The translations under genes were made by a program, and so were the position numbers. From assembly GCA_965153355.1 (NCBI GenBank), contig OZ231126.1, positions 4,402,001 through 4,466,000 on the forward strand: a DNA stretch of 64,000 nucleotides. The letters run 5' to 3'. The notes under the pieces were generated by a model. That model had not been told where the DNA came from. It did not search any database and saw only the letters and a list, made by a program, of their open reading frames with translations. This document shows positions 1 through 6,011 of the stretch, one piece after another (the first letter of the stretch is position 1; every line of letters starts with the position of its first letter). Source of the DNA: Flaccisagitta enflata. Taxonomy: Eukaryota.

Positions 1-154
1 TTTGGGGTCGTCCTCAGGCGATGACCAATCAGAGCCTCGATCGGCCTCACACTCTGCCTTGTAAAGTCAACGGCAGCTTTGGCAGCGTCACAGTTCGGCT
101 CGTTCCGGCGCCGAGAGGATCTGGCTGTGGATCAGCGCCTCTGGTGGTGCAAAG
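1..154 (+). CDS. Exon 1 (5'-truncated by window) of a divergent 40S ribosomal protein S2/uS5-like gene
   Basis: Frame 3 reads [50 protein letters not shown], matching the recalled eukaryotic RPS2 motif [42 protein letters not shown]. Donor AAG|GTCGGT at 155, phase 2. Confidence 0.88.
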
Positions 155-645
155 GTCGGTCAGGAGATGGCTATTCAGCAGTAGGGCATTTCGTCCGGTG
201 TCAGCGTAACGAGGGTATGGCCACGTTTCAGCTCGCCCGATGCTACGATTTAAGCTATGTGGATCCGTCGTTACAAGGAGTTAGACAAATGACAGAAGCT
301 TTTGTAGCGTCACATTCATCTTGTCCCATTCATAGGAATGTTAGACCAAAGATGGCGGCTTTCTTAGTGTCACAGATCATCTTTCTTTCTTTCTTTCTTT
401 CTTTCTTTTTCTCTTGATTTCAAGCTTGTTTTCTTTCTTGCTTTTCCTCACATTCTTGTTTTCTTCCTTTCTTTTCCTCACATTCGTGTTTTCTTCCTTT
501 CTTTTCCTCACATTCGTGTTTTCTTCCTTTCTTTCTTGCTTGCTTGCTTTCTTTCTTACTCTCTTGTTTTCTTTCTTTCTTGCTTTCTTTCTTCCTTTTT
601 TTCTTTCTTTCTTTCTTTCTTTCTTTCTTTCTTTCTTTCTTTCAG

Positions 646-766
646 AATTTTGTTGCTGTCTGGAGTGGAAGACGCTTACTTCATTTCTCATGGCCCGACT
701 TTGGATTTGGGATTTCTGTGCAAAGCCACGCTCAACGCACTCAGAGAGACATTCGCTCATTTTCAG
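646..766 (+). CDS. Exon 2 of RPS2/uS5-like gene
   Basis: Long pyrimidine tract and TTCAG acceptor; joins exon 1 in phase to give R-ILLLSGVEDAYFISHGPTLDLGFLCKATLNALRETFAHFQ, alignable to RPS2 [40 protein letters not shown]. Donor CAG|GTGAGC, phase 0. Confidence 0.85.
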
Positions 767-1116
767 GTGAGCCACACTCAATGCACTCAGAGAGACATTC
801 GCTCATTTTCAGGTAAGCCACGCTCAACGCACTCAGAGAGACATCCGCTCATTTTCAGGGGAGCCACGTTCAACGCACTTAGAGAGACATTCGCTCATTT
901 TCAGGGGAGCCACGCTCAACGCACTTAGAGAGACATTCGCTCATTTTCAGGTGAGCCACGCTCAACGCACTTAGAGAGACATTCGCTCATTTTCAGGTGA
1001 GCCACGCTCAACGCACTCAGAGAGACATTCGCTCATTTTCAGGTGAGCCACGCTCAACGCACTCAGAGAGACATACGCTCATTTTCAGGTGAGCCACGCT
1101 CAACGCACTCAGAGAG
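724..1116 (+). repeat. 46-bp minisatellite (about 8.5 copies) made of the exon 2 3' end plus its donor
   Basis: Unit AGCCACGCTCAACGCACTCAGAGAGACATTCGCTCATTTTCAGGTG, near-identical copies; the first copy is coding. Confidence 0.95.
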
Positions 1117-1406
1117 CCATGTTAGACTGCTAGTAAATCATCTTGTCATCAATTATGACCATATATGAAAATGATTACTATCCAATGGGCTCCTTTAAAT
1201 GATTTTGTTCATTTTTCGGTGATGTTTATGGAGAAGCGCTTACTCTCAGGCATTAATCAAACGCATTTCAAATTATCCTCTCCGACCTTCGTTCCACGAT
1301 CTCCATTCATGTTTATCTCTGTTCTTTTCAAGGAGGAAGTGTTCCGCATCACTAGAGCTTCTTTCTTCTCCGATCTCCATTTATATGTATCTCTATTCTT
1401 TTCAAG

Positions 1407-1518
1407 GAGGAAGTGTTTCGTATCACTCAAGCGTCTCAGCGCCACTTAGCTCCGGAAATGGAAGAGATGCTTCCTTGGGCAAGATCTGATTTCATCCACG
1501 AAGCCGAAATGAAAAATG
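1407..1518 (+). CDS. Exon 3 of RPS2-like gene (non-ribosomal extension)
   Basis: TTCTTTTCAAG| acceptor and G|GTGAGT donor; 112 nt, phase 0 to 1, consistent with both neighbours; reads EEVFRITQASQRHLAPEMEEMLPWARSDFIHEAEMKN. Confidence 0.72.
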
Positions 1519-1734
1519 GTGAGTTTATCGGCGTATCCAATCATGCAATCATTTAAATCATCCAATCAACCAAATTTAAGAACATGTCTCTGTCCCTTCT
1601 CATCGTTGGTTCTGTTTCTTTCCGTCTTTCTAAACGACTACGCCTTTGTTTCCCGGCTGTTTTAAATATATCTTTGTTTCTTCCTTTCTTTCTGTCTTTC
1701 TTTTACTCTCTCGCTGTCTTTCTTTCATTCTCTC

Positions 1735-1970
1735 TCCGTCTCTGTCTCTCTCTCTCTGTCTCTCTCTGTCTCTCTCTCTCTGTCTCTCTCTGTCTCTCTC
1801 TCTCTGTCTCTCTCTTTCTCTCTCTCTCTCTCTCTCTCTCTCTCTCTCTCTCTCTCTCTCTCTCTCTCTCTCTCTCTCTCTCTCTCTCTCTCTCACACAC
1901 ACACACACACACACACACACACACACACACACACACACACACACACACACACACACACACACACACACAG
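1735..1970. repeat. Compound (CT)n-(CA)n microsatellite ending in the exon 4 acceptor
   Basis: Direct reading; ...ACACACAG| precedes an open exon. Confidence 0.95.
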
Positions 1971-3390: not shown

Positions 3391-3395
3391 TCAAT

Positions 3396-4478
3396 ATTCA
3401 TTGCCCCTCCCTCTCTTCTTCATTGCCCCTCCTTCCCTTCATTGCCCCTCCTTTCCTTCTTCATTGCCCCTCATTTCCTTCTTCATTGCCCCTCCTTCCC
3501 TTATCTATTTCCCCTCCTTCCCTTTTTCATTGCCCCTCCCTTCTTCATTGACCCTCCCTCCCTTTTTTCATGCGCCTCCTTCCTTTCTTCATTGCCCCTC
3601 CTCTCCTTCATTGCCCCTCCTTGCCTTCTTTGTTGCCCCTCCTTGCCTTCTTGATTGCCCCTCCTTTCCTTCTTTACTTCTCCTTCCCTTCTTCATTGCC
3701 CCTCCTTCCCTTCTTCATTGCCCCTCCCTTCTTCTTCATTGCCCCTCCCTTCTTCATTGCCCCTCCTTCCCTTCTCCATTGCCCCTCCTTCCCTTCTCCA
3801 TTGCCCCTCCTTCCCTTCATCATTGCCCCTCCCTTCTTCATTACCCCTCCTTGCCTTCTTCATTACCCCTCCTTGCCTTCTTCATTGCCCCTACCTTCGT
3901 TCTTCATTACCCCTCTCCTTCCTTTCTTCATTGCCCCTTCTTCATTGCCCCTCCTTCCCTTCTTCATTACCCCTTCTTCCCTTCCTCATTGCCCCTCCTT
4001 CCCTTCTTCATTGCCCCTCCTCACCTTATTCATTGCCCCTCCTCGCCTTCTTCATTGCCCCTCCTTCCCTTCTTCATTGCCCCTCCTCGCCTTCTTCATT
4101 GCCCCTCCTTCCCTTCTTCATTGCCCCTCCTTCCCTTCTTCATTGCCCCTCCTTCCCTTCTTCATTGCCCCTCCTTCCCTTCTTCATTGCCCCTCCTTCC
4201 CTTCTTCATTGCCCCTCCTTCCCTTCTTCATTGCCCCTCCTTGCCTTCTTCATTGCCCCTCCTTCCCTTCTTCATTGCCCCTCCTTCCCTTCTTCATTGC
4301 CCCTCCTCGCCTTCTTCATTGCCCCTCCTTGCCTTCTTCATTGCCCCTCCTTGCCTTCTTCATTGCCCCTCCTTCCCTTCTTCATTGCCCCTCCTTCCCT
4401 TCTTCATTGCCCCCTCCCTCTTCATTACCCCTCCAACCTTCTTCATTGCCCCTCCTGCCTTCCAATGCCCCTCCTCAG
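3396..4478 (+). repeat. 22-bp pyrimidine-rich minisatellite (TTCATTGCCCCTCCTTCCCTTC)n
   Basis: 22-aa periodicity in three overlapping ORFs; array ends at the CCTCCTCAG acceptor. Confidence 0.95.
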
Positions 4479-4684
4479 TTCTTCGATTCCGATCGAAGTC
4501 CGCTTCATTGCCCCCTGATGCGATCAACAACAACAGTAGCAACAACAACAACAACAGTGCAGCAACAGCAACAGCGGCGGCGGTAAAGATGGCGCCCCAG
4601 GCAGCGGCATCGATGGCGGAAACGAAGTCGGCGACTATGCCGGCCCTGATTCGATCTATCGTGTCAATGAAAATACCGACATGA
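4479..4684 (+). CDS. Probable exon 5 of RPS2-like gene, containing two in-frame stops as assembled
   Basis: CCTCAG| acceptor and A|GTAAGA donor; 206 nt gives phase 2 to 1, matching exons 4 and 6; frame reads SSIPIEVRFIAP*...*...SNSNSGGGKDGAPGSGIDGGNEVGDYAGPDSIYRVNENTDM. Confidence 0.55.
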
Positions 4685-4699
4685 GTAAGAAATCCAATA

Positions 4700-5461
4700 C
4701 AGTTAAATCCCGCTCCAACGGATTTTTTGAGGATCAATAAATTTTATTTGTTATAAGCAGAATTTTCTTATACCTAATAAGGCTAATATAGTAAATAAGT
4801 TAAGGAAAACAAATTGAAAGGAAAAAGAACTAGTCATCCAAGGATCGCACATGTCAGCGGTACCCGATGCCCTGCTTGGAGTGATTAGCTGAAGAAGCTG
4901 AGTGGGAGCAGGGCAGCGGCCCCAAAGGGCTGATGTCCTGTAGGACACAGGGGTAAATTTCCAGATGTCCTTAGAAAGCACATTTAAGGACTGAGTTGAT
5001 TGATTGGAGAACAGTAATGAGATTAGGGATGAGGGCAGATTTGACCCTGAGAGGGTCATTTTGAGGGCTGAATTGAGACAGATATTAGGTTTGAGAGGTC
5101 TGATTTCAGGCCTGAAATGGTTGATTTTGGGCCTGACAAGGCTGATCTAGTACCATAGTGGGCTGATTTTGGGCTTGAGTCAGCTAATTTAGGATCTAGA
5201 AGCGCTGATTTTGGGCCTGAGAGGGGTGATTTTGGGACTGAGAGGGCTGACTTGGGGCCTGAGAGGGCTGATTTGGGGTCTGAGAGGGCTGATTTGGGGC
5301 CTGAGAGGGGCCTGGGGGGGATGTACGGACATATGTACGGATGTCTGGAAATTCACCCCTGTGTCCTACAGGACATCGGCCCTTTTTGGCCGCTGCCCAA
5401 AAAGCATTGGTTCAAGGCAAAATGCCTTTAAAAGCGGGTCCGTTAGAGCGGGGTTCAACTG
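4700..5461. mobile_element. TA-flanked MITE (Tc1/mariner-like) with a nested family A element
   Basis: TIR CAGTTAAATCCCGCTCCAACGGA / TCCGTTAGAGCGGGGTTCAACTG with TA on both sides; uninterrupted copy at 36620-36796 and a degenerate copy near 7950-8101. Confidence 0.8.
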
Positions 5462-5550
5462 TACTATGAAAACATTAAATCACATAGCTTGATAAATTCA
5501 ATAATTCATTGTTTCTCTCCTTTACTTTCTGACTTTTCTGTTCATGTCAG

Positions 5551-6011
5551 CTCCGGAAGTGTGTCTCTCTCTTCGGCCTCGTCCTTCGACCGTCGAAGTC
5601 ATCACAGATCCGTCGGAAGATGGAACCGACGCCAACTCTTCTACTTCCTCCTCCTCCTCCTCCTCCTCTTCCTCCGCCGACTCTCAATTGGACTCTCCCT
5701 GGAGATCTCTAGCTCCGGCATTTAAAACCTCAATCGCCGCTGTCTCAGCCCCCGCCGCCACTGCCTTACGCTCCGCCGCCGCTACTGCCTCAGTCTTCTC
5801 CGCTACTGTCTCAGTCCCTGCCGCTACTGTCTCAGTCCCCGCCGCCACTGCCCCAGTCCTATCCGCTACTGCCCCAGTCCCAGCCGCTACGGTTGTGTCG
5901 TCTGTGGCCCCAATCATCGCCGCTGCCACTGTCTCAACCACTCCTCTTCCCCCTCCTCAAGTGGCCGATGCGTCTTCGTCATCGGAAGTGGGCTCTGCAA
6001 ACGCCGATTGA
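5551..6011 (+). CDS. Terminal exon 6 of RPS2-like gene (Ser/Ala/Thr/Pro-rich tail)
   Basis: Pyrimidine tract and GTCAG| acceptor, phase 1; GC-rich open frame PEVCLSLRPRPSTVEVITDPSEDGTDANSSTSSS...EVGSANAD*. Confidence 0.62.

Follow-up and report, generated by a model that had tools for sequence, protein, structure and literature searches.

The stretch analysed here comprises 64,000 nucleotides of Flaccisagitta enflata (assembly GCA_965153355.1, contig OZ231126.1, positions 4,402,001 to 4,466,000) and is called the window below. Judging from sequence comparison, the plus strand of window positions 1-6011 covers the last two thirds (3′ side) of a gene with introns that encodes a lineage-restricted, strongly diverged homolog of the cytosolic ribosomal protein uS5 (RPS2). 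The DNA is of eukaryotic type, with GT-AG introns, dense microsatellites and elements resembling miniature inverted-repeat transposable elements (MITEs). The window starts within the first exon, and the part of the gene that encodes the S5 N-terminal domain lies upstream of it. The predicted model joins six exons (3-154, 646-766, 1407-1518, 1971-2175, 4563-4684 and 5551-6011, all on the plus strand) across five introns, with GT-AG at every junction. It yields 1173 bases in frame, or 390 residues, 299 of them past the S5 C-terminal (S5_C) domain, and closes with a TGA stop at 6009-6011. A preliminary description of this DNA had proposed a divergent RPS2 gene in which four further, phase-compatible exons add about 300 residues, in good agreement with these figures.

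Exon A (1-154) is the 3′ part of an exon begun upstream, read in codons from base 3, with a split codon (AG, 153-154) before the GTCGGT donor at 155. It codes for WG, a 7-residue insertion and the first half of the S5 C-terminal domain. Its 3′ boundary is marked by P0001, a protein fragment from another organism, since this fragment continues past the donor into intron sequence. Exon B (646-766) lies between a CAG acceptor at 643-645 and a GTGAGC donor at 767 and encodes the second half of the domain, to HFQ. Exon C (1407-1518) carries a remnant of the uS5 C-terminal tail, starting EEVFRITQ, and the start of the extension; an open reading frame (ORF) at 1159-1449 overlaps it and closes with a stop. 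Exon D (1971-2175), with a weak donor (GTTAGC, 2176), holds a conserved helix motif (RRLLEAQIHRDLGL) and a second motif, MLHR...KQQQQQKFVP. Exon E, in the short version used by the model (4563-4684), has a weak internal acceptor and a GTAAGA donor at 4685. Exon F (5551-6011), the last coding exon, contains the conserved motifs CLSLRPRP and QLDSPWRSL.PAFK, and P0017, a fragment from a relative, starts at its boundary. In tblastn searches with relatives against the window, E-values were 2.9e-28 for exon A, 2.6e-20 for B, 1.3e-6 for C, 7.1e-18 for D and 1.9e-12 for F (P0002), the last exon being matched by P0003 at 7.5e-14. P0002 is identical to exon A over 51 of 51 residues and to exon B over 40 of 41, and shares 75% of 24 residues with exon C. 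Three of the four proposed tail exons (C, D and F) are thereby backed by homology to the ORFs of relatives.

By translation count, the tail of the window protein is 15% Ser, 14% Ala and 10% Pro. The richness in these three residues noted earlier is thus borne out, but that in Gln and Asn is not (about 4% each). An in-frame 21-bp repeat in exon F (5740-5890; seven copies by Tandem Repeats Finder, TRF) produces an Ala/Ser/Val/Pro-rich end; the repeat yields an Ala/Thr/Val/Ser/Pro heptad that is absent in the relatives. A Pfam scan of the four tail exons matched no family, and a search of longer proteins with exon F gave no match, low-complexity sequence crowding the result.

Several lines of evidence identify the core as cytosolic uS5. 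First, a phmmer search of the PDB with window bases 3-152 (plus strand) found 92 distinct sequences at E <= 1, the best being 40S S2 (1.8e-11), and all 60 listed are cytosolic uS5. With Pfam, exon A alone scored 17.6 bits against Ribosomal_S5_C, under the cut-off of 21.5, because only one third of the domain is present, and exon B alone had no PDB or Pfam match. Exons A and B are identical at 90 of 91 residues to the Pfam-passing region of the relative P0016. Second, a PDB search with P0016 itself yielded 149 sequences at E <= 0.01, led by one at 4.7e-66; among those shown, 60 in number, every match is a cytosolic uS5 that aligns in a single stretch within residues 177-431. Third, P0016, P0003 and P0005 pass the Pfam thresholds for both uS5 domains: 31.3-36.9 bits for Ribosomal_S5_C (PF03719; cut-off 21.5; 87 bits in canonical RPS2), and 57.9-59.2 bits for Ribosomal_S5 (PF00333; the S5 N domain, which resembles a double-stranded RNA-binding domain, dsRBD; cut-off 27.1; 93 bits in canonical RPS2). 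The first two exons had already been read as the C-terminal half of an RPS2-type S5 domain with many substitutions at normally conserved sites, and both points are supported by the phmmer result, by the continuation of exon B in the P0002 ORF and by the depressed S5_C scores. The insertion between WG and PHT is likewise real, although it measures seven residues (eight in one relative) instead of about six.

Other features of canonical uS5 can also be followed. The eukaryote-specific N-terminal helices (W.P.TKLGRLVK...) are present in the relatives and align at invariant residues, the first hairpin of the core has a 1-residue insertion, and the canonical C-terminal tail is kept just as a diverged remnant. 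Among the matches listed, the PDB bit scores of P0016 are 215-226 for vertebrate and insect uS5, 190-208 for plants and 177-198 for fungi and kinetoplastids, an order that fits an origin from a metazoan-type RPS2. A mitochondrial form (uS5m/MRPS5) is ruled out by the listed PDB matches, all of them cytosolic 40S uS5, and by the cytosolic N helices. A processed RPS2 pseudogene is ruled out by the five GT-AG introns in the window and by the near-identity of the core to an expressed-type relative. We consider it highly probable that the gene belongs to a diverged uS5/RPS2 family.

The relatives show the complete layout of the protein. The full-length members are P0016 (675 aa), P0003 and P0019 (652 aa), and P0005, P0021 and P0022 (614 aa). 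They consist of a Gly/Pro/His-rich N-terminal tail of about 175-200 aa, the uS5 N helices, the S5 N and S5 C domains, and a C-terminal tail of about 270 aa. In P0016, P0003 and P0005, the uS5 core and the motifs of window exons C, D and F follow in the same order in a single ORF. Because core and tail motifs are linked in these contiguous ORFs, the tail is part of the gene that encodes the uS5 core. The proposal of a divergent uS5/RPS2-family gene with a long novel C-terminal extension in one ORF is therefore well founded, whereas the architecture first drawn was incomplete: it missed both the long N-terminal extension seen in the relatives and two stop codons in exon E, discussed below. The contigs of the relatives are 1.6-2.4 kb long. 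Because they are intron-less and barely longer than their ORFs, the simplest reading is that they are assembled mRNAs.

The family appears to be narrowly distributed. A search of longer proteins with exon A returned three relatives and one canonical RPS2. HMMER, run with a 652-aa query against 1.84 billion cluster representatives, gave 1686 matches at E <= 1e-3, of which only P0002 and P0005 extend past the core, to residue 599-606; a third carrier, P0001, is a fragmentary family member. Next in rank comes a match that covers the core only, with 213 bits and 51% identity. The family is thus limited to two 50%-identity clusters and one fragment. Among named protein records in the collections searched there is no family member, so the family would escape annotation by known proteins. 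The closest canonical matches that bear a name are scattered over ape, nematode and fungi. The ESM Atlas returned generic uS5 clusters only, with scores <= 0.84. A scan of metagenome contigs with the family alignment, using two patterns both drawn from the shared N helices, gave 30 loci, none identified as family; the full-length ones are canonical RPS2 with <= 54% identity. Among the articles listed by full-text literature searches there was no description of such an RPS2 homolog, and to our knowledge no RPS2 paralog of this kind has been described in animals. Two side observations may be added here. P0006 (425 aa) has a canonical-type uS5 core with an unrelated Pro/Gln/Gly-rich extension of about 170 residues, and could represent either another uS5 that gained a tail independently or a gene call that is chimeric. 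Of the words sampled from the window, one DNA run of the source organism contains a share of 0.66 and many metagenome and metatranscriptome runs a share of 0.06-0.16, figures not used as evidence of habitat or expression.

The divergence of the core was assessed in a tree of 41 sequences, the window included. The family and the window form one clade (support 100 by the Shimodaira-Hasegawa-like approximate likelihood ratio test, SH-aLRT) whose stem is 1.04 changes per site long, against 0.015-0.16 for the inner branches; in this 41-sequence tree the place of the family among eukaryotic uS5 has no resolution. Conserved columns were defined as those with >= 90% conservation in the 37 canonical sequences. 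Of these 22 columns, 19 are kept in the family, two are replaced by one fixed residue and one is variable. The core of the window is identical to that of P0003 at 88 of 91 positions and to that of P0005 at 67 of 91, in addition to the 90 of 91 shared with P0016. The core therefore changed fast once and was then held nearly constant, keeping the uS5 fold and most universal residues. P0001 differs from the window at four positions, all of them among the 18 read-through intron residues and none among the 50 exon residues; a rough argument from the translated sequence only is that this pattern would be expected under purifying selection on exon A. The tails have diverged far more: identity is 52% between the window and P0016, 37% between the window and P0005, and 39% between P0016 and P0005. 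The window retains 47 of the 78 tail columns that are invariant across the three relatives. From these counts, and from the similar distances of the window and P0016 to P0005, it follows that the conserved tail motifs are still held in the window.

An AlphaFold2 model of P0002, built with a 33-row alignment, agrees with this picture. The model has 168 residues with a predicted local distance difference test score (pLDDT) >= 90, all of them in the core. Foldseek placed uS5 chains of solved 40S structures at the top (root-mean-square deviation, rmsd, 1.8-2.0 Å over about 200 columns; template modelling (TM) score 0.80-0.86; E down to 7.6e-28), and all 50 listed matches are ribosome or 40S-subunit structures. 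In the tail, pLDDT stays below 50 apart from a helix at residues 253-271 (RRMLEAQIHRDLGL motif), which corresponds to window exon D. The C-terminal tail is thus predicted to be mostly disordered, with one helix and a few conserved short motifs. Neither tail of the family matches any Pfam family or PDB sequence.

A possible mechanism is one in which the protein acts on the ribosome or on a pre-ribosome. The gene would be a paralog beside the normal RPS2, and its core would still dock on structured RNA at, or in the manner of, the uS5 site of the 40S subunit or its precursor. Both uS5 termini on the 40S subunit face solvent near the mRNA entry channel, so long tails could be accommodated there and recruit partners. 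In the proposed mechanism both tails would point to solvent beside the channel as flexible arms whose short motifs recruit partners. This ribosome- or pre-ribosome-bound mechanism is a serious candidate that we hold tentatively, short of calling it probable. Its specific form, a lineage-specific alternative uS5 in a subset of 40S subunits, or a pre-40S placeholder, that would place about 470 disordered tail residues at the mRNA entry channel with motifs recruiting regulators, is a bolder proposal and seems rather unlikely when taken by itself. For the diverged uS5 family and the ribosome-bound mechanism taken together, we lean only slightly towards acceptance.

A number of observations weigh against this interpretation. 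At the level of the evidence as a whole, the splice junctions in the window are predictions from sequence comparison, and the mRNA nature of the relatives' contigs is judged only from their length and lack of introns. Paralogy is not helped by the metagenome scan, in which the 30 loci, with their canonical RPS2 genes, share zero DNA with the window. As to ribosome binding, the insertion loop, which lies in the interdomain linker, has a mean pLDDT of only 54 in the P0002 model; the S5_C score of the family is about 40% of the canonical value; two universal residues have been replaced in all members, Q by D in the first hairpin and N by F in the LGNF motif; and the two clusters are 92-93% identical over the N helices and S5 N domain as opposed to 74-75% over the S5_C half.

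The same observations lend themselves to an extra-ribosomal reading, in which the core derived from uS5, and especially its N helices and its dsRBD-like domain, was co-opted as an RNA- or partner-binding module and the tails serve as scaffold or condensate-type arms. In a protein buried in the 40S body, one would expect neither half of the core to be conserved less than the other, and the long stem of the family, its weak S5_C score, its replaced universal residues and its two long, low-complexity tails would all suit a role off the ribosome. Canonical uS5 itself forms complexes off the ribosome with PRMT3, ZNF277, PDCD2 and PDCD2L (PMC7736825), and the new protein may have its role through these partners of free uS5. 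Against this, the family retains 19 of the 22 universally conserved columns, its predicted core can be overlaid on ribosome-bound uS5 with an rmsd of about 1.9 Å, and it still has the N helices and the C-terminal tail remnant, parts that lie on the 40S subunit. Overall, the extra-ribosomal reading is possible, though we would not call it likely. The preliminary description had offered both a specialised-ribosome paralog and a co-opted RNA-binding domain, and either may apply.

Whether this copy of the gene is intact has to be considered separately, and exon E is at the center of the matter. The natural homolog of the relatives' exon is the ancestral exon E at 4479-4684 (plus strand, 206 nt). 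It is in phase with exons D and F and follows the first AG (4477-4478) past a tandem array; no AG occurs in the 1.08 kb upstream of 4477. This exon contains two in-frame stops, TGA at 4516-4518 and TAG at 4537-4539, and a full-length product therefore needs the weak internal acceptor at 4562. The AG at 4561-4562 bypasses both stops, but it is the sixth in line and lacks a pyrimidine tract. The fifth exon proposed in the preliminary description is thus phase-compatible, as stated, but works solely from this weak site. A local search of positions 2100-5700 in the three plus-strand frames did not recover the motif KRGPQL...IVAPPP, which stands at the start of exon E in the relatives, and returned only low-complexity matches (scores 32-48); the motif makes up most of the 31 of 78 invariant tail columns missing from the window. 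Either the tail has been remodelled in this lineage, using the short exon E, or the tail of this copy has been disabled. A variant genetic code for the TAG in the Gln run was considered and rejected: the other stop in exon E, a TGA, also ends the ORF, and the ORFs of the relatives were called without an in-frame stop. An ORF in another frame (3386-4684) ends with a TGA at 4682-4684, exactly at the exon E donor, and an AATAAA stands at 4736-4741, 52 bases past exon E. A short isoform ending near the donor is conceivable.

The exon edges are further complicated by tandem arrays. A 46-bp array with 8.6 copies (724-1120, plus strand; TRF score 710, 95% matches) includes the last 41 bases of exon B and its donor, and the GT is kept in six of eight copies. 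The acceptor and start of exon C are duplicated 74 bases upstream, at 1333 (74 bp x 2, 1329-1410), and use of this site would shift the frame. An 84-bp array with 4.7 copies (2119-2518, plus strand; TRF score 551) includes the end of exon D and its donor and contains four AAG/GT sites; the donor copy GTAAGC at 2260 is stronger than the GTTAGC at 2176 and in frame, and would add 28 residues if used. Finally, a pyrimidine-only minisatellite of 22 bp with 49.7 copies (3397-4475, plus strand; TRF score 1169-1443), free of AG, lies directly upstream of exon E. The arrays at 724-1120, 1329-1410, 2119-2518 and 3397-4475 form an unusual pattern in which exon edges and splice sites seed repeats. They could be a source both of fast change in the tail and of splicing hazard.

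Taken together, the stops in exon E, the lost motif, the frame-shifting duplicate of the exon C acceptor and the repeated donors after exons B and D speak against an intact gene. They support an alternative in which the copy in this genome has a disabled tail: with the first AG (4478) as acceptor, the transcript would run into the stops, and the mRNA would be degraded or the protein cut about 13 residues past exon D. The family would otherwise be functional, and the region may then represent an allele in decay or a young pseudogene. In favor of this alternative are an exon that is in phase with its neighbours and yet has two stops, a rescuing AG that is poorly placed, three exon edges with tandemly duplicated splice sites, the loss of a motif invariant in three relatives, and the AATAAA just beyond exon E. 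On the other side, the core is all but identical to that of P0016, and exon F is open for 152 codons and keeps two conserved motifs, although its openness is weak evidence because the other two frames are open there too. Tail identity of this copy to P0005 (37%) is on a par with that of P0016 to P0005 (39%), and assembly errors are possible in such a repeat-rich stretch. We regard a disabled tail as doubtful, albeit a possibility to be taken into account.

It is highly improbable that the gene is the sole, fast-evolving uS5 of its lineage instead of a paralog. No canonical RPS2 from the same organism was found among the 30 metagenome loci compared with the window, as a sole uS5 would have it. 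However, the core is only about 50% identical to every eukaryotic uS5, while canonical animal, plant and fungal uS5 sit on short branches, and a near-frozen core within the family does not fit a generally fast-evolving ribosome. Nor would a sole, essential uS5 be expected to tolerate stops and duplicated splice sites. Least probable of all, with next to no weight in our judgment, is that the downstream exons form a separate gene or are non-coding repeat DNA open by chance: the region is repeat-dense with several frames open by composition alone, and the four tail exons lack a Pfam family and the exon F protein search was empty, but in three relatives a single ORF contains both the core and the motifs, their order unchanged, tblastn gives 1e-6 to 7e-18 for exons C, D and F, and, at least in the relatives, the ORF continues past exon 2.

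Apart from the gene, the window contains mostly repeats. A MITE-like insertion at 2871-3307, in an intron, has 60-nt terminal inverted repeats that are 98% complementary and internal 20-bp repeats. A second element of the same family lies in the last intron (4911-5398). The two copies, with terminal inverted repeats of 60-68 nt and internal repeats of 20-21 bp, are in opposite orientation, and with 3213-3365 / 4853-5005 they form inverted arms flanking the minisatellite and exon E. In the pre-mRNA these arms could form a long hairpin. An ORF screen of the remaining 58 kb (6000-64000) found no convincing protein-coding ORF, and Rfam had no match in the whole window. Runs of (CT)n, (CA)n and (GA)n, together with minisatellites, make up most of the remainder (11413-12424 and 13024-13531 are examples), with long simple arrays coding for Asp, His and Ile at 38075-38757 and 47598-48050. 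ORF-like stretches at 19004-19501, 22772-22957, 23860-24165, 29621-29893, 44591-44866 and 60084-60422, on both strands, have pieces of ATLHLAV...PS...F...RFSHYCSCP..RDWIAVY in common and are probably a dispersed repeat family of the genome.

Comparison with known systems may provide some orientation. Canonical uS5/RPS2 (chains in 8q7z, 7oya and 4v6w) has the same two Pfam domains, the same N-terminal helices and the same predicted fold (rmsd about 1.9 Å, TM 0.80-0.86). The family is only 48-55% identical to it over about 200 columns, differs by the 7-residue insertion after WG and the 1-residue insertion in the first hairpin, and carries an N tail of 175-200 aa in place of a short RG-rich one as well as about 270-300 additional C-terminal residues, for a length of 614-675 aa compared with about 220-290. 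MRPS5 (uS5m) also combines the S5 N and S5 C domains with added extensions, and in this it is like the family, whose listed matches are cytosolic instead. In animal pairs of paralogous ribosomal proteins, sequence and length are generally almost the same and expression is the main difference. The present copy is half diverged and has more than doubled in length. Like the retained pair Rps27/Rps27l (PMC10313321), it would stem from a duplicated ribosomal protein gene that was kept.

Ribosomal-protein-like assembly factors offer another parallel. Mrt4 (uL10), Rlp24 (eL24) and Imp3 (uS4) are placeholders on pre-ribosomes, and they are ancient and spread across eukaryotes; we know of no placeholder for uS5. 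Like them, the new protein is a diverged ribosomal-protein homolog with added tails that could, by analogy, bind the same rRNA site as its canonical counterpart. Unlike these eukaryote-wide factors, the family is confined to two 50%-identity clusters. The complexes of uS5 with PDCD2, PDCD2L, PRMT3 and ZNF277, as described in PMC7736825, indicate that the uS5 core has partners off the ribosome, and within the family it is the N-terminal part of the core that has been kept best. Those complexes involve the canonical protein. In chaetognaths, many expressed ribosomal-protein paralogs have been reported and extra-ribosomal roles proposed for some of them (PMC2020476). These isoforms are described as identical or similar in size, unlike the long-tailed family, and the word RPS2 has zero occurrences in that text. 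The link to the chaetognath paralogs is only a lead.

The gene family described here is real and unusual, and the preliminary description of it was largely right. Its core is half diverged from all canonical uS5 and nearly frozen within the family, and it is flanked by fast-evolving tails of about 200 and about 270 residues with few fixed motifs. The exon-edge and splice-site tandem arrays may be how the tail evolves so fast. As judged from sequence, the family appears to be maintained in several related organisms and to be expressed. Few ribosomal proteins are as conserved as uS5/RPS2, which lines the channel through which mRNA enters, affects how accurately codons are read and, in animals, is normally found as a single form. 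The family therefore offers a natural test of two fates of ribosomal-protein paralogs, the formation of specialised ribosomes and a departure from the ribosome to take up new roles. If it were true that an alternative uS5 is used on the 40S subunit, it would represent a natural, protein-encoded specialised small subunit in an animal-type genome.

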